Shown here: piece after piece, positions 23,684 to 47,400 of the stretch | How positions within the stretch are numbered: position 1 is the stretch's first letter | How the letters are laid out: each line of letters starts with the position of its first letter | Source of the DNA: an uncultured Acidobacteriota bacterium | GTDB lineage: Bacteria; Acidobacteriota; Vicinamibacteria; Marinacidobacterales; SMYC01 | Direction of reading: 5' to 3' | Assembly (NCBI GenBank): GCA_947259165.1 | Contig: CAMYKY010000003.1 | Span: 27,262 to 91,261, forward strand | DNA: 64,000 nucleotides | The notes under the pieces: model-generated | Seen by the model: the letters and a program-made list of their open reading frames with translations, nothing else | Database searches by the model: none | Told to the model about the DNA's origin: nothing | Made by a program: the position numbers and the translations under genes

Positions 23684-23920
23684 ATGAAACTCTACGTGGG
23701 TAATCTTCCTTATAACGTCTCCGAGGAATCCATCCGAAAGCTCTTTTCGCGCCATGGGCAGGTGCACGACGTCTGGATCGGCAATACGCGCGTCGGGTCC
23801 CCTCACGGCTACGGGTTCGTTCATATGCCGAACGGCTCGAACGCGGAGAAAGCCATCTCGGTTCTCGACGGTATTCAGTTCGAGGGAAGCGAGATCACCG
23901 TTCACCAAGCGAAAGACTAA
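23684..23920 (+). CDS. RRM-type RNA-binding protein (short, no Gly tail)
   Basis: RNP-2 KLYVGNLPY and RNP-1 GYGFVHM. 78 aa. Confidence 0.9.
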   Translation: MKLYVGNLPYNVSEESIRKLFSRHGQVHDVWIGNTRVGSPHGYGFVHMPNGSNAEKAISVLDGIQFEGSEITVHQAKD

Positions 23921-31691: not shown

Positions 31692-31760
31692 CGTGGATCT
31701 CCTAGGCGGGGCCGGGGCTGTCGGACAAGGTCGAGCCTCGCACCGACAGCCCGGTGGTCC

Positions 31761-33024
31761 TTAGTTGAGCGGCGAGTACCAGATCGGCGAGGCATACGCC
31801 CGATCCTGGGTCGTCGCCGGGGATGACCTCGTAGTTGTGTCGACCAACCTTGGGCTCGGTCTTCGCATACTTACCGAAGTAGTTTTCCTCGCGTGAGGTG
31901 GCGAGCCCAGTATGTGTGTCTGTCGCTCCGCTCAGTCCGAATTGGTAAGGGTTGACGCCGACCTCCTCACCCAACTTGAGGCCGATCTTGAGAGCGGAGC
32001 GCGCGTACTCGCATTGGAGCATCCAGTCTTCTTTGGCCGCCGAGCCGGTGAGGTTCGCCACATCCCAATTCTCGTAGTCGGCGAACTCGTCTTCGGTCGA
32101 CAGCAGCGGGTGCGTTTCGCCGTCGCCTTTCATCTGCGTTACTTCGATGATGGGCTCCCAGCGTATCCGCGATTCCGCGTAGGCACGCGTGATCGGATTG
32201 CCGCGGATGTCCGTTTCCGCGAACATCGTGCCGTTGCTCACGTTGCCGTTGTGGGGGATGGCGAGAGCGTTGCCGCCCGTCTAGTCTTCGTAGGCGGCGA
32301 GGTACTTCCACAGGTCCTCGGGATCTTCGCTGTCGAACGTCGTGTAAGGAAGGACCTGGCTCGTCTTGTCGGCACCGTCTCGGAAGACGACGACTCGATG
32401 GAGGTTGTTGCCGCCGGGAAGGGAGGACCACTCGAAGCCGGTCATAGCGGAGAACCGACCCGGGTCGTCGTAGCCGTCGGCGGTCTGGAGGAACGCTTCC
32501 CAAATGCTGCGCGTCGCCTCGGGAGAGTCGAATCGAGCAGTGAGGGTCGCAGCGTCGTTCAGAATGGACCCGAAGGCCTCCTGCGCACCTTCCGGACCGG
32601 CGTTGAACTTCTCGTACAGCCAGCGTCCATACTCACTCGCGAGCAGGAGCGGATCCGCATCGCGGATCATCGGCGCAAGACCAATGTACTCGGCGTGGTC
32701 GGTGACCACGAGGAAATCGAGCGGCCGGACGAGCTGCACGCGCCGACCGGAATTCGAGACGATGGTCTCACCCCGTGCAAACCCGTACGCGTCATCCACG
32801 TCCAGCGTCGTGCCGATCAAACCCGCATCGGGTGAGTACTTCGTATGAAGATGCGTGTCGCCGAACAGAACACGGTCAGGATAGGATTTGTCAGCATAGG
32901 GAGAGTAGGGCTTCGCATCCGCGAAATCCTCGTCGGTGACGACGATCTCTGACTGTGCGAGCAGGCGCCCCGCATGGGTCGTGAAACCGAGAACTACCAA
33001 CATGGTCATGAGTGCTTTAGTCAC
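31761..33024 (-). pseudogene. DUF3604 (PHP-like metallo-phosphoesterase) gene disrupted by an in-frame TAG and an internal deletion/frameshift
   Basis: Signal peptide plus FGDTHLHT...VVTDHAEY N-terminal half (32281..33024). In-frame TAG at 32281-32283 sits directly before the conserved TGGNALAIPHNGNVSNG. The family C-terminal motif (RAYASPIWYSPLN-stop at 31761) is present only in a different frame, and about 150-200 codons are missing. Confidence 0.72.
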
Positions 33025-33060
33025 GTGTTATCCCTCCTTCTGATTAATGTTGCTCTTCTG

Positions 33061-33327
33061 TTAAGTTTCGTCACGCGATGTCCTGCCGAGACGCATCGAG
33101 AGGTAAGGCGAGGCTCCAACGAGGCGCACGCCGTCGGCGGCCATGGAGCGAAGCAACACCAGCCCCCGATCGTCCACCGTGATGACACCCTCCAACTCCA
33201 GCGTCAGCGGCGGTTGGGCGTTCCGGCAGCAAGTCTCTAGCTCGGAAACTTCCGGACCCGACAACGCTCCGGCGACCCGAAGCATCATTCCAGAGTCGAG
33301 CGGTTCCTGAACGATTCGCAACGTCAT
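33061..33327 (-). CDS. Small STAS-like (anti-sigma-antagonist fold) protein, copy 2
   Basis: 88 aa from ATG 33327 (MTLRIVQEPLDSGMMLRVAGALSGPEV...LELEGVITVDDRGLVLL). Paralog of 34756..35022. Confidence 0.62.
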   Translation of the reverse strand: MTLRIVQEPLDSGMMLRVAGALSGPEVSELETCCRNAQPPLTLELEGVITVDDRGLVLLRSMAADGVRLVGASPYLSMRLGRTSRDET

Positions 33328-33339
33328 GCAGGCGCGTCT

Positions 33340-33355
33340 TGCAGAGACTGTGCCA
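33340..33355 (-). promoter_or_regulatory. Sigma54 -24/-12 promoter (copy C)
   Basis: Minus strand TGGCACAGTCTCTGCA with GG-N10-GC spacing exact and -24 a perfect TGGCAC. The ATG at 33327 is 13 nt after the GC. Confidence 0.65.
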
Positions 33356-33407
33356 CCGCGGTCGTCGGCGTAGACACGGCCTACGCCGCGCACTCCCTGC
33401 TTCGCCA

Positions 33408-33459
33408 GCGATATGTCGCCGCGCAGCGAGACGATATTTCGCGCATGCGCGAAATATCG
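33408..33459 (-). promoter_or_regulatory. Enhancer-like site (copy C) including a perfect 28-bp palindrome
   Basis: CGATATTTCGCGCATGCGCGAAATATCG (33432-33459) is perfectly self-complementary. GCGATATGTCGCC (33408-33420) is a further half-site. The centre lies about 90 nt upstream of the -24 element. Confidence 0.5.
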
Positions 33460-33919
33460 CCGCCAGGTGGATCTCGAATGGACGTTCATTGTGGTCGCTC
33501 TTCGTCGGACTCCTGGATCTCTTCCAGAAGAATCCGAGGCGTGAAATCGTGGAGGTCCTTTGCCGAGGTGAACCGTTCTCTTTTCCCCGACTCTAAGTGC
33601 TCGATCCGCCCGCGGAAGAGCCACGATCGGTATTCGCATCGCTGCTGAGTTGAACGAGAAACGCGCGGGGCGACGGCAGCGAGGTAACCATGTGGGCATA
33701 ATCGCCGGGCGGTCGCCGCGAGTCATGAAGGAGTTGTGAGATTTAGTTGAAAGTCACCATTTCGAATGCAATCGCCAGCGACCTGGGCGACGAACGACTG
33801 AGGCGTGACGAGCGGCACGTCGACGTGCGTCCGCAGGTCTGGCAACTCTTGCGTTTTTCCCTCCGAGCGCCCGGGTCAGCTTCTGAGCTAGGTTTCGATG
33901 ATGGTTTTCCGAGTCGCTG

Positions 33920-34675
33920 TCAGCGACCTATGGGGACGGTGGAGAAAAAACCGATTTGGAGAGCGTGGTTGTACTCGATGACGCTTCCGCTGCCTTGTTG
34001 AACGAGCTGCAGGAGATAGCCGAGCTCGAGCCTGCCAGCGCGCCCCATGTTGATACCGAACGCCGCATAAGATCGATTCTGGTCGAAGAAGTTGTTTTGG
34101 ACGTTCTTCCCAAAGTTGATCATTAGCTCGTTGTAAAGCTGCGCCGAGTACCGTGTGTCCGTGCCGATAGGGATCGAAGCCTTGAGGAAATAGCGAAACC
34201 GATTCCGGTAAGTGTGGCCGTCCAAAGTGCCTTCACCGACGTCGTTCGGGACTTTGTTGCCGACAAAGCGTTGTTCGAGCCGGTAACGGTGGACGAGCCC
34301 CGTTCGCCCGAGACGTTGCCAGAGGATGAGCTGCTCCCACAGCCGGTTCTCGGGAACGTTGAATCCCGGTGCCGACCCCTCTCCCGCAGACGTATCGATG
34401 TACGCATACCCGCCCGAGAATTGAACCGTATCGTTGAGGTCGAAATTGATCCCGGGCCTCAACAGTGTTTGGCTCCGCGAGTCGCCCAATCCGTGGACGC
34501 GAAACTGCCCATCGAAGTGAACGCCCCAACCTCCGTCTCCGATCGGATGGTCGCCAAAGTACATGTACCAGCTACGGTAGTCTGTCACCGAGGTACGGCC
34601 TTCGGACTGCGCGGCGGCGACACCGTCGCCGAGGGACGTCACGGCAAAAGCGGCGACCAATAGATAGCGTAGCAT
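33920..34675 (-). CDS. DUF2490 outer-membrane beta-barrel protein
   Basis: ATG 34675 gives the signal peptide MLRYLLVAAFAVTSLGDGVAAAQ. Family-typical HRYRLEQRF, YRNRFRY and a C-terminal aromatic strand. Confidence 0.72.
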   Translation of the reverse strand: MLRYLLVAAFAVTSLGDGVAAAQSEGRTSVTDYRSWYMYFGDHPIGDGGWGVHFDGQFRVHGLGDSRSQTLLRPGINFDLNDTVQFSGGYAYIDTSAGEGSAPGFNVPENRLWEQLILWQRLGRTGLVHRYRLEQRFVGNKVPNDVGEGTLDGHTYRNRFRYFLKASIPIGTDTRYSAQLYNELMINFGKNVQNNFFDQNRSYAAFGINMGRAGRLELGYLLQLVQQGSGSVIEYNHALQIGFFSTVPIGR

Positions 34676-34755
34676 TCGGCCGCGCAGCAAACCGCACAGC
34701 CAATTTCGGTTCACGCCTCGTGGCCGCTGGACATCTGTCAATGTTCGTATTCCGT

Positions 34756-35022
34756 TCAGTGTGCGTCGCCGAATGGCCTGCCGAGACGCATAGAGAGATA
34801 GGGCGAGGTACCAACGAGCGTCGCGCCGGCGGCAGCCACCGAAAGAAGCAACACCAAGCCCGGCTCGTCGGCCGAGACGACGCCCTCGAGCTCTAGCGTC
34901 ACCGGCAGCTTGGCTTTCCGGCAGCAAGCGTCGAGCTCGGCAACTTCCGCACCCGACAGAGCTCCGGCGACCCGAAGCATCGTTCCCGGGTCGAGCGATT
35001 CCACAACGATCCTCAGCGTCAT
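34756..35022 (-). CDS. Small STAS-like protein, copy 1
   Basis: 88 aa from ATG 35022 (MTLRIVVESLDPGTMLRVAGALSGAEV...). The longer ORF start at 35040 is the TTG of the -12 element. Confidence 0.62.
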   Translation of the reverse strand: MTLRIVVESLDPGTMLRVAGALSGAEVAELDACCRKAKLPVTLELEGVVSADEPGLVLLLSVAAAGATLVGTSPYLSMRLGRPFGDAH

Positions 35023-35035
35023 GCAGCTCACGTAT

Positions 35036-35051
35036 TGCAAACAGCGATCCA
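35036..35051 (-). promoter_or_regulatory. Sigma54 -24/-12 promoter (copy A)
   Basis: Minus strand TGGATCGCTGTTTGCA with exact GG-N10-GC spacing and a perfect TTGCA. The ATG at 35022 is 14 nt after the GC. Confidence 0.62.
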
Positions 35052-35133
35052 GCGTGAAAACCGGACCGCTACACGCGTAAGTCCGTTGTTCAGGGCTTCA
35101 GCGGAGACCTTCGGAAGGCGTGCGTCGGCAGAT

Positions 35134-35191
35134 GCGGCGAAATCTCACCGGGCTCCCTTGAGATGTCGTTCTTTGCGCGACATTTCACGCG
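35134..35191 (-). promoter_or_regulatory. Enhancer-like site pair (copy A)
   Basis: Minus strand CGCGTGAAATGTCGCGC (35191-35175), N31, then GAGATTTCGCCGC (35146-35134). Positionally equivalent to copy B. Confidence 0.45.
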
Positions 35192-35214
35192 ACGGTCGTC
35201 GGGCGTCCGAGAAA

Positions 35215-35595
35215 CTAGCTCGAGCTCGTTCTTGGAACGAGAAGGTTGGCGACTTGGCGGTACGGCACCGATAGTTTCAGTCGGATGAGCTCCGAAAGTG
35301 AAACACCCTCCGCGGCAGCTTCGCGCTTCAAAGCAGCGTGAAGGCTCCTTGGCACCGCGACCGTGAGCCGGCCGGATGCCGATTTGATGTCTTGCTCGAA
35401 CCCGGACACGTCGCGTAGCCGCAGCTCTTCGTAGCGCTCCGTGAGCCAGCGATACACGTCGGAGTCGACTATTTTTTCTCGGTCCTCACGCGTTTCCCCG
35501 AGGACGCTGAGCTCGCCCTTGGGGCCGAAGAATCGCGACGAGAATGTGGTGGCATCGGTGCCGCGCTGAAGCATCTGCGACAGGAAGGACGACAT
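35215..35595 (-). CDS. HicB-like / ribbon-helix-helix antitoxin-type protein (no adjacent toxin)
   Basis: ATG 35595 with GGAGG upstream. C-terminal RHH block GRLTVAVPRSLHAALKREAAAEGVSLSELIRLKL. The longer ORF to 35898 would run antisense through hipB. Confidence 0.62.
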   Translation of the reverse strand: MSSFLSQMLQRGTDATTFSSRFFGPKGELSVLGETREDREKIVDSDVYRWLTERYEELRLRDVSGFEQDIKSASGRLTVAVPRSLHAALKREAAAEGVSLSELIRLKLSVPYRQVANLLVPRTSSS

Positions 35596-35679
35596 TTCAG
35601 GCGACAAGCCTCCACTCAGAAATGCAAGAAAAGTGGAAAAGGATTGCGATAGCTTGGCATTTAGCGGTCGATATGATAC

Positions 35680-35721
35680 GCTCTTAAGAGCATAATAAGT
35701 ATTATACGGAGCTCTTAAGAG
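35680..35721 (+). promoter_or_regulatory. Candidate HipB operators / divergent promoter region
   Basis: GCTCTTAAGAGC (35680-35691) and GCTCTTAAGAG (35711-35721) contain the same perfect palindrome CTCTTAAGAG, with centres 31 bp apart. ATAATA-AG-TATTAT lies between them. The second site ends 4 nt before the hipB ATG. Confidence 0.55.
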
Positions 35722-35725
35722 ATAC

Positions 35726-36067
35726 ATGACCGCCAAAAACACACTGACCACAGCGCCACCGTATCCGGTTGAGCAAGCGCTCGAGCGCCTTGGGGCAAAT
35801 CTACGGACTGCCAGATTGCGTCGCAACCTAACCATCCAGAGCGTCGCCGAGAAGATCGGAACGGGCCCGCGCCCAGTCTCGGATGCCGAGAAAGGCAAAC
35901 CGTCAACGAGCGCCGCGGTCTATGTCGCGCTCCTTTGGGCCTATGATCTGCTGGATCAGTTGAGCGAAGTCGCCGGACCCGAGTCCGATGAAGAAGGGAT
36001 GGCGCTGTCCCTGTTACGGGAGCGCTCCCGCGCCCGAAACAGGAGTGAGCTGGACAGTGACTTCTAG
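35726..36067 (+). CDS. hipB: XRE-family HTH antitoxin HipB
   Basis: 113 aa. HTH block LRTARLRRNLTIQSVAEKIGTGPRPVSDAEKG. Immediately upstream of, and overlapping, hipA. Confidence 0.85.
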   Translation: MTAKNTLTTAPPYPVEQALERLGANLRTARLRRNLTIQSVAEKIGTGPRPVSDAEKGKPSTSAAVYVALLWAYDLLDQLSEVAGPESDEEGMALSLLRERSRARNRSELDSDF

Positions 36068-37334
36068 AGCCAGCGCACGCGAGTGCTACGTCTACCTGAC
36101 GCTGCCGGGTGAAACCGAGTTCGTTACCGCCGGGCGATTCGTGCTCGAGTCCGGCCGTCATGGTATTCCCACAGGAAGGTTCGTTTATGGTCGCAGCTAT
36201 CTCGAACGGGAAAACGCTGTGCCGATCGACCCGCATCAGCTCAAGTTGAGCAACCGAACCTACGCGACCACCATCCTCAACGGCGTCTTCGGCGCGTTGC
36301 GCGATGCCAGTCCTGATCACTGGGGTCGGCGCGTCATCGAGAAGTACGCCGGGAAAACGCAGCTTGGCGAGATCGACTATTTGCTCGAATCACCCGACGA
36401 CCGCGCCGGCGCTCTCGGATTCGGCTTGAACCGCAATCCCCCGGCCCCGCGCCGCAAGTTCAACCGGACGATGGCTCTAGAACGGCTGCAGCAACTCGCC
36501 GACGCGATTATCGCCGACGAGGATCTACCAGCGAACTCTGATGCTCAACAGACCGAAGATCTGTTGCTCCATGGCACTTCGATGGGCGGCGCCCGCCCCA
36601 ATACCGTAATCGAAGATCATGCCGGCCTGTGGCTAGCAAAATTCAACCGGCCTGATGACAAGTGGAACCATGCACGTGTCGAGCAGGCGATGTTGGTACT
36701 TGCCCGTGAGTGCGGTCTGCAGACTTCCGAAAGTAAGGTCACGACCATCGGCGGTCGCGACGTCTTGCTCGTCAAACGCTTCGACCGCCAAAAGACGACT
36801 GAGGGTTACCGGCGGGCTCGAATGCTCAGCGCCTTGACGTTACTGCGCGCGGAAGATACTCATCGAGATCGCGATAGGTGGTCGTACGTTTCGCTCGTTG
36901 AAGAACTACGACGACTCTCGGCTCAGCCTCGTAAAGACGCGCCCGAGCTCTTCCGACGCATGTGTTTCAACGCTCTGATTTCGAACAGCGACGACCATCC
37001 GCGAAACCATGCGGCGATCGCAAAGGACGTGGAATGGAAGCTCTCGCCCGCGTACGACCTCGTACCGTCCGTGCCGGTCAGTATCGAGCGCCGCGATCTG
37101 GCTCTCACATGCGGCGACATGGGGCGCTACGCCCACGCCGATAACCTACTCTCGCAAAGCGCACGCTTTCTGCTTGAAGTCGAGGGCGCGAAACAGACCA
37201 TCGCTGCGATGGAGCAAACCATTCGAGCCAAATGGTACGACGTCGCTCGCGGGGAAGGCGTCAACGAAAAAGACTGCGAGAAGATCGCTGGCGCCTTTAA
37301 CTATCCCGGATTCCGGCTCGCAAGCACTGAATAA
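36057..37334 (+). CDS. hipA: HipA-family serine/threonine kinase toxin
   Basis: GTG 36057 (AGGAG 11 nt upstream) overlaps the hipB end. HipA N-terminal coupling domain (CYVYLTLPGE..GRFVYGRSYL), catalytic NSDDHPRNHA and SPAYDLVP. Confidence 0.88.
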   Translation: MTSRASARECYVYLTLPGETEFVTAGRFVLESGRHGIPTGRFVYGRSYLERENAVPIDPHQLKLSNRTYATTILNGVFGALRDASPDHWGRRVIEKYAGKTQLGEIDYLLESPDDRAGALGFGLNRNPPAPRRKFNRTMALERLQQLADAIIADEDLPANSDAQQTEDLLLHGTSMGGARPNTVIEDHAGLWLAKFNRPDDKWNHARVEQAMLVLARECGLQTSESKVTTIGGRDVLLVKRFDRQKTTEGYRRARMLSALTLLRAEDTHRDRDRWSYVSLVEELRRLSAQPRKDAPELFRRMCFNALISNSDDHPRNHAAIAKDVEWKLSPAYDLVPSVPVSIERRDLALTCGDMGRYAHADNLLSQSARFLLEVEGAKQTIAAMEQTIRAKWYDVARGEGVNEKDCEKIAGAFNYPGFRLASTE

Positions 37335-37336
37335 CG

Positions 37337-38539
37337 TCAGCTCTCGACCTCCATGTCGTCGCCGTCGGGGCTTCCCACGACTTCGTAGAACGCGCGGCCA
37401 TTCGGGTCTTCGACCTCCTGGAAGAACACGGTGTCGAACTGGTAGTAGGTGACGCCTTCTTCCTGCACCGTGGTCACGACGTCGGACACGCTGAGGAGCG
37501 AGTCGACCTGGGCGCCGAGCTCGGGCTCGCCGACCACGTAGCCGGTATTACCGTCTTCTTCGTACTGCACGTAGAAGTTGTAGTTGACGTAGTGGTAGGT
37601 CTCGCCATCGGCCTCGAACGAGGGCACACCCGCCGGGATCGCTTCGAGCTCTGTCTGGGGTGGCGTCGGCTCGACGCGATAGATGACACGACCGGCATCG
37701 TTGACATCCTCGGTGAAATACATCTCGTCGAACTGATAGACGACATCGTCGCCCTCTGCTTCGCGGGTGGCATCGCTCGGAACCGAGCTGACTTCGGCTC
37801 CCACCGGCGGCGTCACCACAACGTAGCCTCCGCCAGGAGCGCTCTGCCAAAACGCCCACTCGGCGTAAAAGTAGGTCGCGCCGTCCACGGTAACCGTCTC
37901 GGGGTCTTCGGGCAACGCGTCCACTCGATGACCCACCGGAGTCGAGGTCAGGATGTAGCCCTCTTCGCCATCGTAAATGACTTTCCGATACCACGGGTTC
38001 ACACGAACATACGTGACCGAGTTGTAGGTGTGGTTCGTCGACTGGCTCGCCGTCGCCGCGAACATGACCGACGATATGAAAACGAAGCTGACCCAGCGAC
38101 GCCGGTACCACATCCAGCGACGCCAGAAAACGTGGTGACGCCATGCCGCACGCCGGAAGGCGCGAGAGCGGTGGACTCGCCGAGCTCGGGCGCGGCTGCG
38201 ATGACGCGCGGAGCGGCGTGCGGCGTTTCTGGTCGCGGTGCGGCGTCCACTGGCACGTGCCGCGGAGCGGCCGGGTGGACGGCGGGCTGCCGGTGGTCGA
38301 CTCGCGGCCCGCGAAGGTGCAGGGCCACCACGCGAGGGGTTCGAGCGATTCATCGAGCCCGAGCGTGACGGGGGCCGTCGATTCACCGACGACCGGCTCC
38401 TGGCGGAGCGTCCTCCTCTGGAGCCGCCACGGCCTCTTTGGGCGTGGGCGATGGCCTGAAGCGGAGGCAAGATGGGCACGGCGATCTCGAGGGTCAGCAC
38501 CATGATCGCGACCCATCGGATTTTCTTGAGTGATTTCAT
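37337..38539 (-). CDS. Hypothetical membrane/secreted protein: Arg-rich basic region, TM helix and acidic beta-repeat domain
   Basis: 400-aa ORF 37 nt downstream of the DUF2092 gene. N-terminal signal/TM, about 130 aa of R/S/P/A low complexity, a second TM, then about four repeats of the pattern G..Y.V...P.G..V..LP......V.G..YY. Confidence 0.55.
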   Translation of the reverse strand: MKSLKKIRWVAIMVLTLEIAVPILPPLQAIAHAQRGRGGSRGGRSARSRSSVNRRPPSRSGSMNRSNPSRGGPAPSRAASRPPAARRPPGRSAARASGRRTATRNAARRSARHRSRARARRVHRSRAFRRAAWRHHVFWRRWMWYRRRWVSFVFISSVMFAATASQSTNHTYNSVTYVRVNPWYRKVIYDGEEGYILTSTPVGHRVDALPEDPETVTVDGATYFYAEWAFWQSAPGGGYVVVTPPVGAEVSSVPSDATREAEGDDVVYQFDEMYFTEDVNDAGRVIYRVEPTPPQTELEAIPAGVPSFEADGETYHYVNYNFYVQYEEDGNTGYVVGEPELGAQVDSLLSVSDVVTTVQEEGVTYYQFDTVFFQEVEDPNGRAFYEVVGSPDGDDMEVES

Positions 38540-38576
38540 CAGACGATCCTTCGCGCGAGCACGTACTCGTTGACCT

Positions 38577-39362
38577 TCATTCGTTCACCGGCACCACCTC
38601 GACGCGCTCGGCGTCCGGAGGTGGCGAGAATTGTGACAGAGCATCGTCGGGCAAGCTCGTGGTCCACTTTCGATAGCGCGCCGAGTACGACGGTGCGCCG
38701 TTCTCCTCAGTAAAGTTGATGTGGCGCCGCACCGGAAACGACTCGTCTCCCTGGCGAATCCAAACTTCCAGATCGGCACCAGGCTTGCGAAGCGCAACGT
38801 GGTCGGTCCAAAAGCCATCGACCCATGCTTCGCCGACGTATTGCACCAAGACGTCTTCACCGAGCCAAACGTCCACGGGGTCACCGACGAGCATATCGGC
38901 GAACGGCACATCCAGGTCGTACTCGTAGACCAGGCTCTCCACCGCGTCGGAGATGTTCGGCGGCAGCTCTATCTGGCCCCAAACGTTGGCGGGCTGCTTC
39001 AGCAAGCTGAACTCGCCCCGGTCGAACCACGCGGAATCCACCGTCGCGTCATCGTGGAGCGTCATCCAAAACAACCGGCCAGGTTTGTGCGCCGCCATCC
39101 GCTGGACCATGTCGAAGTGCAGCATCTGACCGGACTCCTGGACCGCCTCGTACGTGACCAGCGCCTCGAAGCCGAGCTGATCATGCGAGGAGAGAAACTC
39201 CAACATCCGCGACATCACGTCGCGCCCTTCGGGCATGGTGTCGCCATCGCCGGTCAAAGGCTCCGGACTCCAGAGCTCGACATCGTCGGGGGGAGGTGGC
39301 GCCGCCCGACAGCCGGCAAGAAACGCCAAGGCGACGACGAAAGATACGATTCGCAATGTCAT
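38577..39362 (-). CDS. DUF2092 (LolA-fold) lipoprotein
   Basis: ATG 39362 gives the lipobox signal MTLRIVSFVVALAFLAGC. The body has the DUF2092 pattern (HKPGRLFW..DSAWFDRGEFSLLKQP..VWGQIELP..DLDVPFADML). Confidence 0.62.
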   Translation of the reverse strand: MTLRIVSFVVALAFLAGCRAAPPPPDDVELWSPEPLTGDGDTMPEGRDVMSRMLEFLSSHDQLGFEALVTYEAVQESGQMLHFDMVQRMAAHKPGRLFWMTLHDDATVDSAWFDRGEFSLLKQPANVWGQIELPPNISDAVESLVYEYDLDVPFADMLVGDPVDVWLGEDVLVQYVGEAWVDGFWTDHVALRKPGADLEVWIRQGDESFPVRRHINFTEENGAPSYSARYRKWTTSLPDDALSQFSPPPDAERVEVVPVNE

Positions 39363-39375
39363 GGAGACCACGCAC

Positions 39376-39391
39376 TGCAAACAACGCTCCA
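39376..39391 (-). promoter_or_regulatory. Sigma54 -24/-12 promoter (copy B)
   Basis: Minus strand TGGAGCGTTGTTTGCA with exact GG-N10-GC spacing. The ATG at 39362 is 14 nt after the GC. Confidence 0.62.
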
Positions 39392-39463
39392 GTCGCGTTG
39401 CGCTCGTAAGCCGTGTAGTTTCAGCGTAACGACGCTATTGCTGGGGCGTCGCACACCGTCCGA

Positions 39464-39519
39464 CGCGATATCTCACCGGGTCTCATCAGGATGTCGTTCA
39501 TTGCGCGATATTTCGCGCG
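39464..39519 (-). promoter_or_regulatory. Enhancer-like site pair (copy B)
   Basis: Minus strand GCGCGAAATATCGCGC (near-palindrome, 7 of 8 pairs) within 39519-39503, N31, then GAGATATCGCG (39474-39464). The centre lies about 120 nt upstream of the -24 element. Confidence 0.45.
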
Positions 39520-39533
39520 TTCCGGCCTCGAAA

Positions 39534-40121
39534 CTACTCGACCCAGCCCAGAACGTTGCGCGCGATGGACCAGCGCGGCTCGAGAGGTCTGGTATCCTTG
39601 CCCAAGATCCAGTGATCGTAGAGCCTTTGGATCGTCCCGTTCTCTTTCTGGATCTCGATCCAGACATTCAGAAAAGCGACGGTGTTCACGTCCCCGCTCG
39701 CTACCGCGTACGCGAGCGGTGTGCGCCGGCGCACGTCCTCCGGCGCGACCACGGCGTAGTGTGGATAGAGCAGGCTCCAGGCGGAGCCGCGCTCGGCGGT
39801 GGTCACGTAGGCGTCCTCGTCGTTCGAAGCCAGACTTTGACCAAACTCCTCGATATCGCGAAGGAGTCGAAGGCGAGCGTGAGGCACGAGAGCCTGCGCT
39901 CGCGCCACCAGAAATGGATCGTCGAGGATCGCGAGCGTCAGCGACTCCATCTGACTGATTTTCTCGAGACTGACGAAGTCGTGTCGCCGATAATCGCGAA
40001 CCAGCAACGCGAGCGTCTCGACGCTCGAGGCCGACCCCGAGCTGGCCGCGGAGCTCGAGCGCGCGTCCGCCGGGCTCGCGGCACTCCACTCGATGCAGGC
40101 CGCGGTGCCCGAAGGCCAAAG
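39534..40121 (-). pseudogene. Periplasmic substrate-binding-like lipoprotein lacking its 5' end (low-confidence family call)
   Basis: Open frame from the stop at 40122 reads LWPSGTAAC (lipobox-like), a Ser/Ala linker and a 157-aa body ending YDHWILGKD..PRWSIARNVLGWVE. There is no start codon or signal-peptide n/h-region upstream. The only start in frame is TTG 40007. Confidence 0.35.
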
Positions 40122-40328
40122 TCAGGGACGGATCGCGCCTTGGTGGGTGGCGGTCGCGTCGTTGGCAACGCTCGCCATCGCCATCCCGGCCACGCTGCAA
40201 TGGGCGGGCGGCGCCGACCCGACGACGGACATGGTCGAAGTCGAAGCAGAGCCTAACGGATCCGAGTTCGTGCTCATCTTACGCATTGGTTGGTCGGGCG
40301 ACAGCGGACTTACGCCCGACGAGATTGA

Positions 40329-40571
40329 GAAGCGCGAAGACGAGCTGAGCCGGAAGAACCGTCGGCACTCTCGAAGCCGCTGCGTCCTCTCGTCGATGTC
40401 GAGCGCGAACACATCCGCCTGGTGTGCGAGCGCTGCGGCTGGCGCATCCGCGGCGATGGTGGCGCCGCACAGATACTGGGTCTGAACCCGAGCACGTTGC
40501 GCTCGCGGATGAAAAAACTCGGCATCGTGCACCCGAAGACAACGTTTGGAGAGGCGTCCATCGCTTCTTAG
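40329..40571 (+). pseudogene. C-terminal stump (Fis-type HTH) of a sigma54-dependent enhancer-binding protein
   Basis: Frame open from 40329 without a start codon. It reads ...PLVDVEREHIRLVCERCGWRIRGDGGAAQILGLNPSTLRSRMKKLGI, the typical EBP DNA-binding tail. No AAA+ domain lies upstream. The preceding 39994-40330 reads like an anti-sigma-factor fragment in another frame. Confidence 0.6.
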
Positions 40572-40753
40572 TCGCGATGTACAAGTGCTAACTCACGCCC
40601 GTGCTGAGGCCTTCTCCGCTCGTCCCGTTCCTCGCCGCGCTGAGCGCGAGCACCGTCGCCATCGCCGACGAATGGAGGACTGGCCGGCCGCGAAGGACCT
40701 GTTCATCCCTGAAGACGAGGTGCCTGACAGCATGAAGCGGCGCATGAAAAAAA

Positions 40754-41587
40754 ATGAAGCACAAAACTGACGTCTTCGCGGTACGCATTTCGCTCGTCGC
40801 GGTCGCGTTAGCGGTCGCGGCGAGCGCTCTCTCTCAAACCATCTGGCGCGACGTCGACCACGAGCCCTTGCCCTTCGGGAATGATCGCGAGCTGATGGAG
40901 TTCATGCGGACCGCCGAGGTCGTCGCCGAACGCGTCATCGGCATCGGGATCAACCGCTCTGTCAAAGTCACGCTAGAACAGGACGGAGTCCGCTCACACG
41001 CGATCTTTCGCGAAGTCGACGTTCGCAGGGACGTAGCCAGCATCAAGGGCGAGAGTTATCAGTTGTTCGCCGACAGCTATCTGTTCGAGTGCGCGGCTTA
41101 CGAGCTCGCGGCGATGCTCGAGTTCGACCGTGTACCTCCGGTGGTGCTGCGCACCATCGGGAATCGTCGCGGAAGCCTCCAGATCTGGGTCGAGGACACC
41201 CTCGATGAAGAAAGCGACACGTTCCAGCCACCACGGAACCTCGAGTGGGTCACCCAGATTTGGGACATGAGATTTTTCGACAATCTTCTCTACAACATCG
41301 ACAGGAACGCCGGAAACAAGCTCGTCACCTCGGACTACCGGCTGTGGCTCATCGACCACACACGTGCGTTTCAATTCAGATTCGAGCTTCTCGACGACAG
41401 GATGGTCCGAGTCCCCCGTGAAAGCTGGGAGCGGCTCTTGGTCCTCACCAATGAAGTCTTGAGCAGCGCGCTTGCAGACTATCTGACCCCCATCGAGATC
41501 GGCGGCATCCTCAAACGACGCGAAATCATCGTGACGCACATCGAGGCCCTCATCGCCGAGCGCGGTGAAGATGGAGTGTTCTACTGA
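40754..41587 (+). CDS. Secreted protein with PI3/PI4-kinase-like catalytic motifs
   Basis: Signal peptide (SLVAVALAVAASALSQ). Blocks ECAAYELAAMLEFDRVPP, GSLQIWVED, NLLYNIDRNAGNKLV and LWLIDHTRAF resemble the catalytic (DRxxxN) and activation (IDH..F) loops of PI3/4-kinase and HipA-like folds. Confidence 0.5.
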   Translation: MKHKTDVFAVRISLVAVALAVAASALSQTIWRDVDHEPLPFGNDRELMEFMRTAEVVAERVIGIGINRSVKVTLEQDGVRSHAIFREVDVRRDVASIKGESYQLFADSYLFECAAYELAAMLEFDRVPPVVLRTIGNRRGSLQIWVEDTLDEESDTFQPPRNLEWVTQIWDMRFFDNLLYNIDRNAGNKLVTSDYRLWLIDHTRAFQFRFELLDDRMVRVPRESWERLLVLTNEVLSSALADYLTPIEIGGILKRREIIVTHIEALIAERGEDGVFY

Positions 41588-41862
41588 AACGACGTATGTC
41601 AAAATTCACAGTTCATCGTGATCAACCTCCCGCCGGATGTTGCGGGAACCGGGCTCATTCGTACGAACCGAGACGATCTCCAACGTTGACACTCATTTAG
41701 CGAAATGTAGCGGTTTGGACGACCGGCATGCAACCGCTCAGCGCCCATGTCAGCCCGCAGGCAGAAAAGCAAGATCGAAAGATTTATAAGCATATGCTAC
41801 ATAACGAGTTAGAACGTCGGCGGATTTGACTTTAGGTTTTAATTACACCTAAAATACACCTC

Positions 41863-43164
41863 ATGAACCTATATATTCACGAAGGCTACAGCGAAGAACA
41901 CCGTCGCGGGCTCGAGCTCGGCGAGGAGATCGCGACCCTTTCGGCGCAGCTCCAGGTGGCTACTTATCGGCTGTTGGTGATGCTGCGGGAGTTCGACGAC
42001 CTCGGGGGTTGGGCGTTGCCCGGGCTCAAGTCGTGCGCGCATTGGCTCTCGTGGCGCACCGGTCTCGACGCGGGCGCGGCGCGCGAAAAGCTCCGGGTCG
42101 CTCACGCGCTCGCGAAGCTGCCGCTCATCAGCGAGTCGATGAGCCAAGGGGACATCTCGTACTCGAAAGTTCGGGCGGTTACGCGGGTGGCGACCCCGGA
42201 GAATGAACAAGACCTTCTCCAGATCGCGCTCGGAGGAACGGCGGGACAAGTCGAGCGCATCGTGCGTGCGTGGCGCAAGATCGATCTCGAGACCGAAAAA
42301 GAGCTTGCGAACGAGCAGCAGGCCCGCGCCGAGGTCTCGACGTTCGAGGACGAGGACGGGATGCTCATCGTTCGAGCCAAGTTGCCGCCGGACATCGGCG
42401 CGGTGTTTCTCAAAGCCCTCGAGGCGGCGTCGGACGTCGTCTATCGCAAAGACACGGAGCGCCCGCTCGGGCATCGCCGAGCGGAAGCGCTGAAGCTCAT
42501 CTCCGAGGCGGCGCTGACGAGCGAGCTCGACGCCGGTAGTAGCGCCGACCGGTATCAGGTGGTCGTCCACGTGGATGAGCCGGTGCTCGAAGCTCCGGAG
42601 CAGGCAGGGCAATCCGCGCTCGAAGGGGGTATTGGCGTTTCCGCGGAAACGTCTCGGCGGATCGCGTGCGACGCCTCTATCGTCGAGATGAAACACGATG
42701 ACAGCGGCAATGTGCTCGACGTCGGGCGAAAAACGCGGAAGATCACACCGTCGATCCGCCGTGCGCTCGATGCACGGGACCCGACGTGCGTGTGGCCGGG
42801 GTGTCACTGCAAGTATGTTCAGGCCCATCACATCAAGTTTTGGGCGGAGGGAGGCGGAACGAACCTCGATAACCTCTGTAACCTGTGTCATTACCATCAT
42901 CACCTGGTTCATGACGGCGGCTATCGCGTCGATATGCTCGCTGACGGCGAGTTTCGCTTTACCCATCCCCGGGGGTGGGTCATCCCAGCGGTGCCGACTC
43001 CGGTGAGACCACCCGATACATTGCTCGCCGACATCGAGGTTGCCGAGAACGCGGGCAACGCCGGCTGGGGCGGCGAGCGGATCGACATGACCTATTTCGT
43101 GGAGACCACATGGCGCCCGAAAAGCGCCTACGAATCGAGCGAGTCGGCTTCTCGCGATCCCTGA
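41863..43164 (+). CDS. DUF222 + HNH endonuclease protein (REP13E12-like selfish-gene family)
   Basis: N-terminal DUF222 pattern (AQLQVATYRLLVMLREFDDLGGW..GLKSCAHWLSWRTG). C-terminal HNH (CVWPGCHCKYVQAHHIKFWAEGGGTNLDNLCNLCHYHHHLVH). Preceded by an AT-rich, SD-less upstream region. Confidence 0.88.
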   Translation: MNLYIHEGYSEEHRRGLELGEEIATLSAQLQVATYRLLVMLREFDDLGGWALPGLKSCAHWLSWRTGLDAGAAREKLRVAHALAKLPLISESMSQGDISYSKVRAVTRVATPENEQDLLQIALGGTAGQVERIVRAWRKIDLETEKELANEQQARAEVSTFEDEDGMLIVRAKLPPDIGAVFLKALEAASDVVYRKDTERPLGHRRAEALKLISEAALTSELDAGSSADRYQVVVHVDEPVLEAPEQAGQSALEGGIGVSAETSRRIACDASIVEMKHDDSGNVLDVGRKTRKITPSIRRALDARDPTCVWPGCHCKYVQAHHIKFWAEGGGTNLDNLCNLCHYHHHLVHDGGYRVDMLADGEFRFTHPRGWVIPAVPTPVRPPDTLLADIEVAENAGNAGWGGERIDMTYFVETTWRPKSAYESSESASRDP

Positions 43165-43215
43165 TGTTGATATTGCCGCCGTGGGCCCGATCAACGGTTG
43201 GCTCGTCGGGTACGC
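43141..43215 (+). repeat. Left copy of an imperfect direct repeat (partner at 54330..54416)
   Basis: GAGTCGGCTTCTCGCGATCCCTGAT matches its partner at 22 of 25 positions. ATTGCCGCCGTGG matches at 13 of 13, followed by about 30 nt of weaker similarity. It covers the HNH stop codon. Confidence 0.45.
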
Positions 43216-43265
43216 TCAGCGAAACGGGAACACCGTGACTCCAAAGCAACGAGCCCACGCCACGG

Positions 43266-44672
43266 TCATTGTTTCTCGGGCGTCGGTATCGGCGAGGGCT
43301 CTTGCTCGTCCCGGTGAGCGAGGCCGTATTTCTGCATGCGGTAGATGAGTGTGTTGCGGGTGATGTGAAGAAATCTTGCCGCGCGGGTCTGATTCCCGTC
43401 GTTCCTGCGGAGCGCTTCCCGGATCAGATACTCTTCGACCCGGTCGAGCGCGATACCTTCCACGGGTAGATTCAACACGAAATCGTCGATGTCCGACGAC
43501 TGTTTGGTGAGAAACGCCGGCAAGTCGTCGAGCGTCACCACCCGGCCAGCGGTCAACGCGGTCAGCCGCTCCATGAGATTTTCGAGCTCGCGGATGTTCC
43601 CGGGCCAGGGGTAGGCGTCGAAGACCTTCAAGACTTGTCGGTCCAGCCTCAGTGTCTTGCCGAATCGCTCGCCGTATTTTCCGAGGAACTGGTTCGCGAG
43701 CAAAGGAATGTCTTCGCGTCGTTCTCGTAACGGCGGGAGCGTAATCGGAATGACGCTGAGACGATAGTAGAGGTCTTCGCGGAATTGGTCTTGTCGGATT
43801 AACTTCTCGAGCTCGCGGTGCGTCGCGGCGATGATGCGGACGTCGACCTTGATCGGGTGCGCCGCCCCTACCTTGTCGATCTCTTTTTCCTGAAGGAGGC
43901 GCAGCAACTTGACTTGGATCGAAGGCTCGAGATCGCCGATCTCATCGAGAAAGACCGTCCCGCCCTTGGCTACCTCGATCTTCCCTTTGCGATCGGACGT
44001 GGCACCGGTAAACGCACCGCGGGTATGACCAAACAGCTCCGACTCCAGAAGGCTTCCGGGGATGGCGGCGCAGTTGACCACCACGAGGGGTTGGTTTTTC
44101 CTCGGGCTGTTGTAGTGGATTGCTTTAGCGAGGAGCTCCTTCCCGGTTCCACTTTCACCCAAGATCAGAACCGTCGAGTCGAATTTCGCCGCCTGCGCGG
44201 CGGTGGCAAACACTTTCTGGATCGCGCTCGAGGCGCCGCTCATGTTCTCGAAGTGAAGACGCTCCGTGACTGCTTGTTTCAGTTGGCGGTTCTCGTGTCG
44301 TAGCTTGCGGAGCTCTAGAGCGCGGTCGACGACGAGTTTGAGCTCGGCGCGATTGACGGGCTTTTGTAGATAGTCGAAGGCGCCCTCGCGCATCGCCTCG
44401 ACCGCATTGTCGACGTCGGCGTGGGCGGTGGCGATGATGACAGGAACGTCGGAATCAATCGCGAGCACGCGGGTCAAAAGCTCGAGGCCGCTGAGCTCGG
44501 CCATGCGCATGTCGCTGATGACGAGCTCGAATGGATTCTCGGTAAACGCATCGAGCGCCGCCTTCGGGTCGCCACACGACGTCGTCTCGAACCCCGCTTC
44601 TTGAAGCGTGTATTCGACGATGCGCCGGAAGCTAGCGTCATCGTCGACGATGAGGATTCTTTCAGCCGTCAT
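43266..44672 (-). CDS. NtrC-family sigma54-dependent response regulator
   Basis: ATG 44672 (MTAERILIVDDD). REC domain, AAA+ with Walker A GESGTGKE and the sigma54-contact GAFTGA, and a C-terminal Fis HTH. The start overlaps the kinase stop (ATGA). Confidence 0.92.
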   Translation of the reverse strand: MTAERILIVDDDASFRRIVEYTLQEAGFETTSCGDPKAALDAFTENPFELVISDMRMAELSGLELLTRVLAIDSDVPVIIATAHADVDNAVEAMREGAFDYLQKPVNRAELKLVVDRALELRKLRHENRQLKQAVTERLHFENMSGASSAIQKVFATAAQAAKFDSTVLILGESGTGKELLAKAIHYNSPRKNQPLVVVNCAAIPGSLLESELFGHTRGAFTGATSDRKGKIEVAKGGTVFLDEIGDLEPSIQVKLLRLLQEKEIDKVGAAHPIKVDVRIIAATHRELEKLIRQDQFREDLYYRLSVIPITLPPLRERREDIPLLANQFLGKYGERFGKTLRLDRQVLKVFDAYPWPGNIRELENLMERLTALTAGRVVTLDDLPAFLTKQSSDIDDFVLNLPVEGIALDRVEEYLIREALRRNDGNQTRAARFLHITRNTLIYRMQKYGLAHRDEQEPSPIPTPEKQ

Positions 44673-45871
44673 GGTGTGGCGCCATCTCCGTTCGGCCCGT
44701 TCGGTAAAGCGATGACGAAGCAAGCGCCGTCCGAGCGCGAGGACTCCGCGAGGTGGATTTGCCCGCCTTGCGCTTCGATCAGCTTGCGTGCGATAGCGAG
44801 ACCGAGTCCGGTGCCGCGTGGTTTGGTCGTGAAGAACGGCTCGAACAGTCGAGCGCGAGCGTCCGAGGGGACGCCGGGCCCATCGTCCTCCACGAGGATT
44901 CGAAGCTGGTCTGTCGCCTCCTCGAGCCGAATCGTGATCGTGCCTCCCGACGGCATGGCCTGAATGCCGTTGAGGACGACGTTGAGCAGCGCTTGCTGCA
45001 CCTGGGACGCATCGACTCGGATGTCCGGTAGTGTCGACGCGCTCTCGGTCACAATGGATACCGAGTGGCGGGACGCTTCTTGGGAGCAAAGTGTTTTCAG
45101 CGAAGCTGCGACGTCGCGAAGGTCGCTCGGCTCGCGTACCGGCTTGGGGGTGCGCGCGAACTGAAGGAACTCGTTCACGATGTGCTCGAGCTGGTTCAGC
45201 TCTTTGTGAACAATCTCCGCGAACTCTTGTTTGTCGTTTCCTGGAGACGATTCCGCGAACAATATCTCGAGCGACGCTTTGATGGACGCGAGCGGGTTTT
45301 TGATCTCGTGCGCGAGCCCGGCAGAGAGCTCGCCGAGTGCTTTGAGCCGATCCGCTCGCCGCAGTTGTTCGAAGCTCTCTTGAAGCTGCGTGTACGCTTC
45401 GGCGAGCTCGCGCGCGGTGCGCTCCTGGTGCTCGCGAGAGCGCCGCTCGGATTCGGCCAACAGCCCCACCACGACAGCGACCACCTGGAACATGACGAGC
45501 TCCGCGTATTGAGCCTGCATGTACTCGTCGTGGACGCCCAGCATCTCGCCCCAATCCAAGACGATGTGAGGCAGATAGCTGGCCGCCGAAAGAATCGAGG
45601 TCGCGAGCGCTCCCCGGAGGCCGAACCAGTGCGCCGCAGCGAAGATCGGCAGGTAGTAGAGACGCTGGTAGACGTTGTGGAGCCCGATCGCTTCCACCGA
45701 GGTGAGATGATGGGCTAGGGCGGTGGCCGCGACGGCTCCCCCGATAAACACCAGCCTCCACAGCGTTGCGCCCGACGAGGGCCCGACGACGCCTGGGGTT
45801 CGAGCGTCCATTGTTTTCGTCATCCCGTCCACGGTCGTCCTCTCGAGCTCGACTTGCAAGGTGTGCGCCAT
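44669..45871 (-). CDS. Sensor histidine kinase with polytopic membrane N-terminal domain
   Basis: H-box LSAGLAHEIKNPL and N/G boxes (NVVLNGIQAM, DDGPGV, GTGLGLAI). The N-terminal approx. 120 aa are hydrophobic and His-containing, with no large periplasmic loop. Confidence 0.88.
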   Translation of the reverse strand: MAHTLQVELERTTVDGMTKTMDARTPGVVGPSSGATLWRLVFIGGAVAATALAHHLTSVEAIGLHNVYQRLYYLPIFAAAHWFGLRGALATSILSAASYLPHIVLDWGEMLGVHDEYMQAQYAELVMFQVVAVVVGLLAESERRSREHQERTARELAEAYTQLQESFEQLRRADRLKALGELSAGLAHEIKNPLASIKASLEILFAESSPGNDKQEFAEIVHKELNQLEHIVNEFLQFARTPKPVREPSDLRDVAASLKTLCSQEASRHSVSIVTESASTLPDIRVDASQVQQALLNVVLNGIQAMPSGGTITIRLEEATDQLRILVEDDGPGVPSDARARLFEPFFTTKPRGTGLGLAIARKLIEAQGGQIHLAESSRSDGACFVIALPNGPNGDGATP

Positions 45872-45929
45872 GGCGGCAACGCAGCGTTCGCAAACACTTG
45901 CGATCTAAGCCTCGCGCATCGCTGCTGCA

Positions 45930-45960
45930 TTTGCAACAAGCAATGATGGTTTTGCAACAA
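45930..45960 (+). promoter_or_regulatory. Candidate enhancer sites upstream of the cus promoter
   Basis: Direct repeat TTTGCAACAA at 45930-45939 and 45951-45960 (21-bp phasing), about 75-105 nt upstream of the -24 element. A further inverted repeat TCGCAA-N4-TTGCGA lies at 45888-45903. Confidence 0.4.
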
Positions 45961-46034
45961 ATCGACGGTGTGGATTTACTCGTAAATCGAGCGCAAGCCC
46001 TTCTAAACAAGTTACTTGGGCGGATACGGCGCCT

Positions 46035-46050
46035 TGGCTCGAATCTTGCC
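46035..46050 (+). promoter_or_regulatory. Sigma54 -24/-12 promoter in front of cusC
   Basis: TGGCTCGAATCTTGCC with exact GG-N10-GC spacing, 16 nt before ATG 46066 and divergent from the sigma54 two-component operon. Confidence 0.58.
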
Positions 46051-46065
46051 AATAGAGACTACAGT

Positions 46066-47400
46066 ATGTGCTGGCAGAGAATTGGCCTGTGGTCGATTGG
46101 GTTGTGCATGATTGCGTCGCTGGGTGCCGCTCACGCCGACTCACGGCAGGATGAGGTCGACAACGAAATCGCGACTCCGGAGTTCTACGCTCCCGAGGAC
46201 ACGCTTCGGGCCTATGTGAGCGAGGCGCTCGACAAGAATCCGGCCATCCAGGAAACGTTGGGCCGATATCGAGCTTCGCTCGAAAGGGTCGACCAGGTCG
46301 ACACGCTGCCCGATCCGGTATTCACCTTCGTGCAAGCAATCCGAAGCGTCGAGACGCGAGTCGGCCCACAGATCAACACGTTCTCCTTCTCCCAGAGATT
46401 CCCGTGGTTCGGCAACCTGGACCTCAAGGGGCAGGTCGTGATGCAGGAAGCGCTCGCGGAGCATCAAATGTATCGGGCGCGTCAACAGGATGTCATCGCG
46501 CGCACCAAGCGCGCGTACTACGAGCTTGCCTACATCGATGCCGCCATCGGGATCACGCGTGAAGAGCAATCGCTGCTCGAGCACTACGAGGCGCTGGCCC
46601 AGACCCGGTACGCGACCGGCCAGGGACTCCAGCAGTCCGTGATCAAACTGCAGGCCGAGATCACACGGGTCGTGAATCGACTCGAGATTCTCGGGCAGCA
46701 ACGCCACTCAGTCGAGGCGAGGTTGAACACGTTGGTGGACCACGCTCCCGAGCGCCCCATCCCGGCAATCGCACAGCCGAGGCTCCCCGACGTCGAGATC
46801 GATCTCGAAGAGCTCTACGCGTTGGGCCTCGACAACCGGCACGAGCTCAAAGCCACCGAAGAGCGCATGCGTAAGAGCGAGAAAGCGATCGAGCTTGCCG
46901 AGCGGGATGGCTGGCCCGACTTTTTCGTTGGCGTGGGTTATATCAACGTCGGCGATCGATCGGATGCGGCGGGAATCGCCATGCCGCCGCCCGACAACGG
47001 TAGAAACGCACTGAGTTTCTCCGCCGGCATCACCCTGCCGATCTATCGGGACAAGTACGATGCCGCCACGCGTGAGGCGAGTGAGACGCTCGTTGCCGAG
47101 CGCAGCAACTACGCCAACATCCAGAATGAGATGGAGTTCTCGATCCGTGATGAGGCGGTACGCTTCGAGACACTCCGCGAGCAGATTCGCCTGTTCGAAC
47201 AGGCATTGATCCCGCAATCCGAGGAAGCGCTTCGCTCCACCGAATCGGCCTACGAGACGGGACAGTTGGGTGTGTTGGACCTTCTCGATAGCGAGCGCAT
47301 GCTCTTGGGCGTGCGACTAGTGAACGCGCGCTATTACACGGACGTGTTGGTGGCGCTCGCGAATCTCGAACGGGCTGTTGGAACGAGATTTCCTAGATGA
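46066..47400 (+). CDS. cusC: Outer-membrane efflux protein (TolC/CusC family)
   Basis: ATG 46066 gives the signal peptide MCWQRIGLWSIGLCMIASLGAAHA. Two OEP repeats. First gene of the RND operon. Confidence 0.78.
   Translation: MCWQRIGLWSIGLCMIASLGAAHADSRQDEVDNEIATPEFYAPEDTLRAYVSEALDKNPAIQETLGRYRASLERVDQVDTLPDPVFTFVQAIRSVETRVGPQINTFSFSQRFPWFGNLDLKGQVVMQEALAEHQMYRARQQDVIARTKRAYYELAYIDAAIGITREEQSLLEHYEALAQTRYATGQGLQQSVIKLQAEITRVVNRLEILGQQRHSVEARLNTLVDHAPERPIPAIAQPRLPDVEIDLEELYALGLDNRHELKATEERMRKSEKAIELAERDGWPDFFVGVGYINVGDRSDAAGIAMPPPDNGRNALSFSAGITLPIYRDKYDAATREASETLVAERSNYANIQNEMEFSIRDEAVRFETLREQIRLFEQALIPQSEEALRSTESAYETGQLGVLDLLDSERMLLGVRLVNARYYTDVLVALANLERAVGTRFPR

Follow-up and report, generated by a model that had tools for sequence, protein, structure and literature searches.

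In a stretch of 64,000 nucleotides (nt) from an uncultured Acidobacteriota bacterium (assembly GCA_947259165.1, contig CAMYKY010000003.1; hereafter the window), four genes carried a sigma-54-type promoter motif whose conserved GC lay only 13-16 nt upstream of their start codons. Two of these genes encode small STAS-fold proteins, one a DUF2092 lipoprotein and one a CusC-type outer-membrane factor. Taken as a whole, the arrangement speaks modestly in favour of genuine enhancer-dependent sigma-54 promoters that would be joined, with hardly any gap, to the start codon with which each operon's first gene opens. The four motifs were present where an earlier annotation of the same DNA (the original prediction) had placed them:

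33340-33355, minus strand: -24/-12 element TGGCACagtctCTGCA (TGGCAC-agtct-CTGC), 13 nt from the C of GC to ATG 33327; the related locus L003 keeps element and spacing.
35036-35051, minus strand: -24/-12 element TGGATCgctgtTTGCA (TGGATC-gctgt-TTGC), 14 nt to ATG 35022.
39376-39391, minus strand: -24/-12 element TGGAGCgttgtTTGCA (TGGAGC-gttgt-TTGC), 14 nt to ATG 39362; the orthologue in L006 has the same.
46035-46050, plus strand: -24/-12 element TGGCTCgaatcTTGCC (TGGCTC-gaatc-TTGC), 16 nt to ATG 46066; the relative L012 has TGGCGTggatcTTGCC, also 16 nt.

Each site matched 9-10 of the 11 consensus positions (TGGYAY-N5-TTGCW), and its GG and GC were separated by exactly 10 bases. Four arrangements of TGG-N8-YTGC lying 13-16 nt before the ATG of an open reading frame (ORF) of at least 85 amino acids (aa) were observed, against a mean of 0.055 and a maximum of one in 200 dinucleotide shuffles; as the three sites before genes starting MTLRIV are paralogous copies, they amount to about two independent events in the window. 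The original prediction had numbered the base that follows TTGC -10, and the leaders then come to 3, 4, 4 and 6 nt; under the usual convention, with the C of GC at -12, the leaders shorten to 2, 3, 3 and 5 nt. With either numbering there is no room for a Shine-Dalgarno (SD) sequence before the four ATGs, as had been claimed. Among 14 sigma-54-proximal starts, none had an SD core of at least 4 nt in the possible leader, and all 14 were ATG, a criterion that discriminates weakly because ATG dominates this genome anyway.

The same pattern was found in relatives, which are known only from metagenome assemblies. Neither the DUF2092 protein nor the STAS alignment found a relative when scanned against GTDB representative genomes, among which the lineage is absent, and the STAS protein had no tblastn match in plasmids; a scan of metagenome contigs yielded only three loci, and those CusC matches that had source names pointed to Acidobacteriota/Vicinamibacteria, a faint taxonomic hint. 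All of 13 STAS-like/DUF2092 loci kept TGG-N8-YT(G/C)C and its distance of 13-15 nt to the ATG. The -24 and -12 blocks stayed, and drift was seen in the 5-nt spacer and between -12 and the ATG. Motif and distance persisted where protein identity had fallen to 35-38% (L002, L008-L011). A cusC relative with 78% identity (L012) kept both the 16-nt gap and the enhancer repeats described below. Scanning all fetched DNA recovered a further instance before a pstS-like lipoprotein gene (L001, 4590-4730, plus strand), with TGGCTC-gacct-TTGC 16 nt before the ATG and ATATCG-type sites upstream. Orthologues that lack the motif served as natural controls: two motif-less DUF2092 orthologues had SD-like leaders (L007, ggaaaggacactggATG, ggaaagga; L015, aggaaaaaggatgtagcgATG, aggaaaaagga), and the cusC relative L014 had an SD-like gtggagtggttttGTG (GGAG). 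Both the retention of the short motif-to-ATG distance in relatives and the SD of motif-less orthologues agree with the original prediction.

The ATGs at 33327, 35022, 39362 and 46066 are, to judge from comparison with homologues, very probably the correct start codons. All 18 of 18 STAS-like proteins of this family began MTLRI. Codons 2-5 varied at synonymous positions only (ACG/ACA/ACC, TTG/CTG, CGA/CGC/AGG/AGA and ATC/ATT), which indicates that they are translated and selected as peptide. In an alignment of 16 sequences (A3), five of the 15 invariant columns were these first residues, while the rest of the protein fell to 35% identity; invariance of this kind is unusual for an N-terminus. 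The two STAS paralogues gave a weak STAS_2 Pfam match. An AlphaFold (AF2) model built on 16 homologues (pLDDT 87) predicted strand 1 at residues 4-10, in line with the proposal that MTLRIV contributes to beta-strand 1, and its best structural matches were SpoIIAA, RsbV and MlaB (Foldseek probability 1.0). For the other two genes, the lipobox of the DUF2092 lipoprotein and the CusC signal peptide require the given ATGs and leave no alternative start. Invariant MTLRI, signal peptides and structure model lend strong, indirect support to the view that the ATGs are genuine. One of the STAS-like genes had been called as a 142-aa product (P0001; 33061-33489, minus strand), 54 aa too long for a family of about 88 aa, and another call (P0004) was also extended upstream; neither extension was conserved. 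This extension of STAS-like ORFs across their own promoter by gene callers is a systematic annotation error for such starts. The original prediction had further attributed the conservation of the first codons to their overlap with the promoter, which did not hold up: in the STAS proteins MTLRI is conserved as a peptide, its codons changing at synonymous positions alone, and this is not accounted for by overlap with the promoter, while the DUF2092 codons come from a copied regulatory cassette. As an aside, a 106-aa ORF at 25261-25581 (plus strand) starts MTLRS behind a strong GGAGGAG but has no relationship to the STAS family; a start with 'MTLR' is thus not enough by itself to mark the cassette.

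The cassette was recognised in the regulatory region of the DUF2092 gene. In both the window and L006 this region aligned with its counterpart in STAS genes over a stretch that opens at the enhancer and ends near +16, beyond which the two diverged. On this alignment, a single unit made up of some 190 bp of regulatory sequence, together with the ATG and five codons, was copied onto an unrelated lipoprotein gene. Copying of the promoter together with its ATG is what would be expected if no separate ribosome-binding site exists.

Every MTLRI promoter had repeated ATATCG-core sites (e.g., CGCGAAATATCGCG and GAGATTTCGCC) about 50-140 bp upstream of the promoter motif, and within the window matches to GAnATnTCGY clustered only at the three MTLRI upstream regions. 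A further ATATCG-type match, at 54748, falls within coding sequence, has no promoter and was treated as chance. The cusC enhancer is of another type, with TTTGCAACAA repeats in place of the ATATCG core. The putative regulatory features are:

33405-33461, minus strand: putative enhancer (upstream activator site), a palindrome of 32 bp, GGCGATATTTCGCGCATGCGCGAAATATCGTC, followed in this list by a third GACATATCGC site.
35134-35191, minus strand: putative enhancer, CGCGTGAAATGTCGCGCAAAGAACGACATCTC ... GGTGAGATTTCGCCGC.
39461-39519, minus strand: putative enhancer of the type shared with the other MTLRI genes, CGCGCGAAATATCGCGCAATGAACGACATCC ... GGTGAGATATCGCGTCG.
45928-45963, plus strand: putative cusC enhancer, two TTTGCAACAA repeats (CATTTGCAACAAGCAATGATGGTTTTGCAACAAATC), kept in L012.
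43266-44672, minus strand: sigma-54 activator with REC-AAA+(GAFTGA)-HTH_8 architecture, the only enhancer-binding protein (EBP) signature in the window.
44669-45823, minus strand: partner histidine kinase (AtoS/ZraS-like), divergent from cusC.

The activator at 43266-44672 is the likely regulator of the cusC promoter. It belongs to the NtrC family but scored below every NCBIfam equivalog cut-off (398 bits against 760 for ZraR and 502 against 714 for AtoC) and is therefore not ZraR or AtoC proper. As the regulator was neither a ZraR equivalog nor an OmpR-type CusR, it lacked the mark of ZraSR/CusRS-type metal-responsive regulation. In L002 and L011, a gene for an EBP with GAF-AAA+-HTH architecture divergently adjoined the STAS gene. 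The motifs therefore behave as real sigma-54 promoters in the way originally proposed, with blocks kept, spacer variable, repeated sites upstream and EBP genes adjoining both cusC and distant STAS homologues. On these sequence features, we consider it highly likely that the TGG-N8-YTGC sites are sigma-54 promoters.

The claim that these four were all of the sigma-54 promoters in the window was not established. A motif scan of the window that accepted at least 9 of 11 consensus positions with GG and GC in place returned 13 matches, including 7854-7869 (plus strand) and 45870-45855 (minus strand), so the four sites are not demonstrably all of its sigma-54 sites. The first of these, TGGTAT-caacg-TTGCT, falls between a xylose-isomerase-like gene (6941-7846, minus strand) and the MarR domain of ORF 7845-8501, a domain that starts about 95 codons into the ORF; it had neither a start codon nearby nor a recognisable enhancer, and no comparative support. 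The second, TGGCGC-acacc-TTGCA, matched 10 of 11 consensus positions and overlaps ATG 45871 of the long histidine kinase ORF, likewise without comparative support. The kinase orthologue in L012 starts at the equivalent of ATG 45823 (MTK...) and lacks the motif. By this comparison the kinase probably starts at ATG 45823 rather than 45871. For the match at 45855-45870, chance is one possibility, and a lineage-specific promoter for autoregulation, with some 20 nt of leader, is another.

Clear SD sequences were confirmed at the genes that the original prediction had named (GGAGG at 1487, AGGAGG at 26679, AGGAG at 36057, AAGGAGG at 52104 and GGAGGAG at 25261). Downstream cistrons of the sigma-54 operons also had one, with AAGGAGG before 33024, AAGGA before 38539 and AAGGA before 47411. 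The original prediction's description of an otherwise SD-using genome needs correcting, as only about half of the roughly 60 window genes had an SD core of at least 4 nt. A scan of 32900-39700 for sigma-70 promoters gave a single site, on the wrong strand, and none upstream on the strand concerned; Rfam and tRNA searches of the whole window detected nothing. Elsewhere in the window, a DUF222-family gene (41863-43164, plus strand) had the textbook sigma-70 layout TTGACT-N18-TAAAAT-N7-ATG (41800-41865), which places +1 on the A of the ATG. This gene is a candidate for a second, ordinary kind of leaderless gene.

From sequence we infer that these promoters depend on sigma-54 in vivo, where +1 lies and that translation is leaderless. 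In the proposed mechanism, sigma-54 RNA polymerase on the -24/-12 element would be activated by an EBP whose sites lie about 70-140 bp upstream of the motif. The ATATCG-core enhancer would serve the MTLRI genes, and the TTTGCAACAA repeat would serve cusC, probably via the adjacent NtrC-type regulator. Transcription would begin about 12 nt (± 2) beyond the GC and thus 0-5 nt ahead of the AUG. Lacking an SD, the first cistron would be translated from a 5'-terminal or near-terminal AUG, and each downstream cistron would rely on an SD of its own. The promoter would form one portable unit with the AUG and the first codons, as suggested by its copying onto the unrelated lipoprotein gene. The geometry gives leaderless or near-leaderless transcripts a slight advantage as the main expressed form.

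Several observations weigh against this mechanism. The canonical +1 leaves leaders of 2-5 nt, not 0, and Krishnan et al. in 2010, whom PMC3616915 cites, are said to have found that a few additional 5' bases lower leaderless translation in E. coli. The base at the canonical +1 is often a pyrimidine, which makes the true start uncertain; since a C precedes the A of the ATG in the window clade, a start at that A is possible and would need 13-16 nt between GC and +1. Unpaired probability predicted for the 5' AUG was 0.43, compared with 0.52 for internal ATG controls, and gave no support. Tight spacing is not universal, as the cusC relative L013 (70% identity) kept the motif with a gap of 23 nt. 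L002 and L011 have TTCC in place of TTGC at -12, no EBP for the MTLRI enhancers was found in the window, and no RpoN-box signature of rpoN was present in its six-frame translation. Finally, about half of the window genes lack an SD, which makes SD-independent initiation on a longer transcript conceivable. That thought leads to an alternative in which the sigma-54 promoters are real, but translation uses a longer mRNA, which might stem from a further promoter upstream or from a start well upstream of the canonical +1, or proceeds by ordinary 30S initiation without an SD, the proximity of promoter and ATG being incidental or expression-limiting. An organism in which so many genes have no recognisable SD can evidently initiate without one, and both the 2-5 nt left by the canonical +1 and the lack of raised AUG accessibility fit such an account. 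Against it speaks that four gene families, in distant lineages, keep a spacing of 13-16 nt as the bases in between drift, that motif-less orthologues gain an SD, that the copied cassette includes the ATG and that no sigma-70-like site lies upstream on that strand. We therefore regard the longer mRNA as unlikely, though by no means negligible.

Doubt may also be directed at the promoters themselves, as the TGG-N8-YTGC matches might be chance or the site of another DNA-binding protein in a repeated regulatory cassette. The loose motif is frequent, with 27 copies on both strands of the window against 12.2 ± 3.5 in dinucleotide shuffles, the majority of them intragenic; this excess could come from codon bias or from intragenic sigma-54 sites. 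The TTCC at -12 in L002 and L011 and the failure to see rpoN in the window point the same way. Against this stand a conservation pattern exactly as for -24/-12 elements, EBP genes adjacent in three independent contexts, repeated sites at enhancer distance and the very low probability of the positional arrangement arising by chance, which together make a non-promoter origin improbable. The remaining alternative is that the start codons are misassigned, the true start being the TTG of TTGCA with GGAG upstream, a long ORF reaching to 33726 or a downstream Met, each behind an ordinary leader. TTG 39380 and TTG 35040 are indeed in frame with GGAG or GGAT 6 nt upstream, and the gene caller lengthened both P0001 and P0004. 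The gaps from -12 to ATG of 13, 14 and 15 nt, however, differ by non-multiples of three, so the gap must be non-coding, and TTG within TTGCA is excluded as a conserved start. The candidate pairing of that TTG with GGAG as its SD was accordingly rejected, as 13-nt or 15-nt spacing (33327, L003, L008-L010) puts TTG/CTG out of frame and 33327 has CTG. ATG-MTLRI is common to all homologues where the upstream extensions are not, and downstream Mets would remove strand 1 or the signal peptide. Misassigned starts are therefore a very slender prospect. Beyond the fusion of sigma-54 promoters to the AUG at these genes, a bolder extension holds that such fusion is routine in the lineage, and that enhancer, -24/-12 element, AUG and MTLRI form a mobile expression cassette, transferable to unrelated genes, in which MTLRI is selected for efficient initiation or early elongation on leaderless messages, or for shared N-terminal recognition, and not for the fold; this we consider rather doubtful.

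The genes behind the four promoters and their downstream cistrons are:

33061-33327, minus strand: 88-aa STAS-fold protein MTLRIVQEPL..., first gene after its promoter.
32281-33024, minus strand: downstream gene, N-terminal part of DUF3604, with a GTG start and AAGGAGG 8 nt upstream.
34756-35022, minus strand: second 88-aa STAS-fold paralogue, MTLRIVVESL..., followed by a DUF2490 gene at 33920-34690.
38577-39362, minus strand: DUF2092 lipoprotein MTLRIVSFVVALAFLAGC..., whose first 5-6 codons belong to the copied cassette.
37337-38539, minus strand: DUF6515 gene downstream of DUF2092, with its own SD AAGGA 7 nt before ATG 38539.
46066-47400, plus strand: TolC/CusC-type outer-membrane factor, signal peptide MCWQRIGLWSIGLCMIASLGAAHA.
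47411-48910: cusB, CusB-like with a heavy-metal-binding domain, SD AAGGA.
48933-52046: cusA, CusA-like RND pump, behind cusB.

The DUF3604 gene is split into two ORFs (31702-33024, minus strand), of which 32281-33024 covers profile positions 3-208 and 31702-32241 covers 224-355 of 591. The split hints at a frameshift, a pseudogene or an error of assembly, with the C-terminal third apparently missing. In relatives, behind the pstS-like gene of L001 come pstCAB-like genes that encode ABC permease and ATPase domains, and sulfatases and a phosphate porin (Porin_O_P, L008) were found behind the STAS gene. The pst-like genes, sulfatases and phosphate porin indicate that the MTLRI regulon may be phosphate- or phosphoester-related. 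Two other pairs of genes were noted in the window. A HipA-like kinase gene (36057-37334, plus strand) adjoins a HicB/RHH-domain gene (35215-35898, minus strand), and this toxin-antitoxin-like HipA/HicB pair sits between two sigma-54 operons. Two small divergent genes (22506-22796, minus strand, MANIYVGN...; 23684-23920, plus strand, MKLYVGNLPYN...) have N-termini that resemble RRM-type RNA-binding proteins.

Like canonical sigma-54 promoters (glnAp2, nifH, pspA and zraP), the window sites have GG and GC blocks 10 bases apart, a TTGCW -12 element, repeated activator sites some 70-140 bp upstream of the motif and adjacent genes for AAA+ EBPs. The divergent two-component NtrC-type regulator beside a metal-efflux operon resembles zraSR-zraP. 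Unlike in the canonical promoters, the -12 element of the window sites lies only 13-16 nt from the AUG; to our knowledge, the known sigma-54 examples have 5' untranslated regions (UTRs) of tens of nucleotides with an SD. In full-text literature searches that paired leaderless genes with sigma-54, RpoN or EBPs, no paper describing leaderless mRNAs that depend on sigma-54 was found. Without its activator a sigma-54 promoter stays silent, and leaderless mRNAs bypass the usual ribosome-binding step. In the papers on transcription start sites that were consulted, leaderless mRNAs and sigma-54 promoters are treated separately. The nearest analogue is the sigma-70-type leaderless genes of Deinococcus-Thermus and Actinobacteria, which have an RpoD -10 box directly before the ORF (PMC12340547). 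They share with the window cases a last promoter element immediately upstream of the AUG, no SD and ORFs that are often mis-extended by gene callers, whereas the window promoters are of the sigma-54 class, so that initiation would be strictly activator- and ATP-dependent and not constitutive. The STAS-like protein shares its fold, predicted with confidence, with the STAS single-domain proteins SpoIIAA, RsbV and MlaB. It differs from them in being shorter (88 aa), in its invariant MTLRI N-terminus and GASPYL motif, in having no partner kinase or ABC transporter nearby, and in that its gene is always first after a sigma-54 promoter and often beside a GAF-type EBP.

On the best reading of these sequences, two known kinds of element, a sigma-54 promoter and a leaderless gene, would be combined here in a conserved fusion, a case strengthened by the comparative data. 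The regulon itself appears to be new; in the window it takes in the STAS-like protein, DUF2092/DUF6515, DUF2490 and DUF3604, and in relatives pstSCAB, sulfatases and the phosphate porin. If the reading is true, a simple sequence rule, a -12 GC at 13-16 nt before the ATG, would help to correct start-codon calls such as P0001 and P0004. Expression of the first gene of such an operon would depend only on enhancer activation and recognition of the 5' AUG, with no room for control through a 5' UTR. The copied cassette suggests that regulons grow by transplanting promoter and start codon together.

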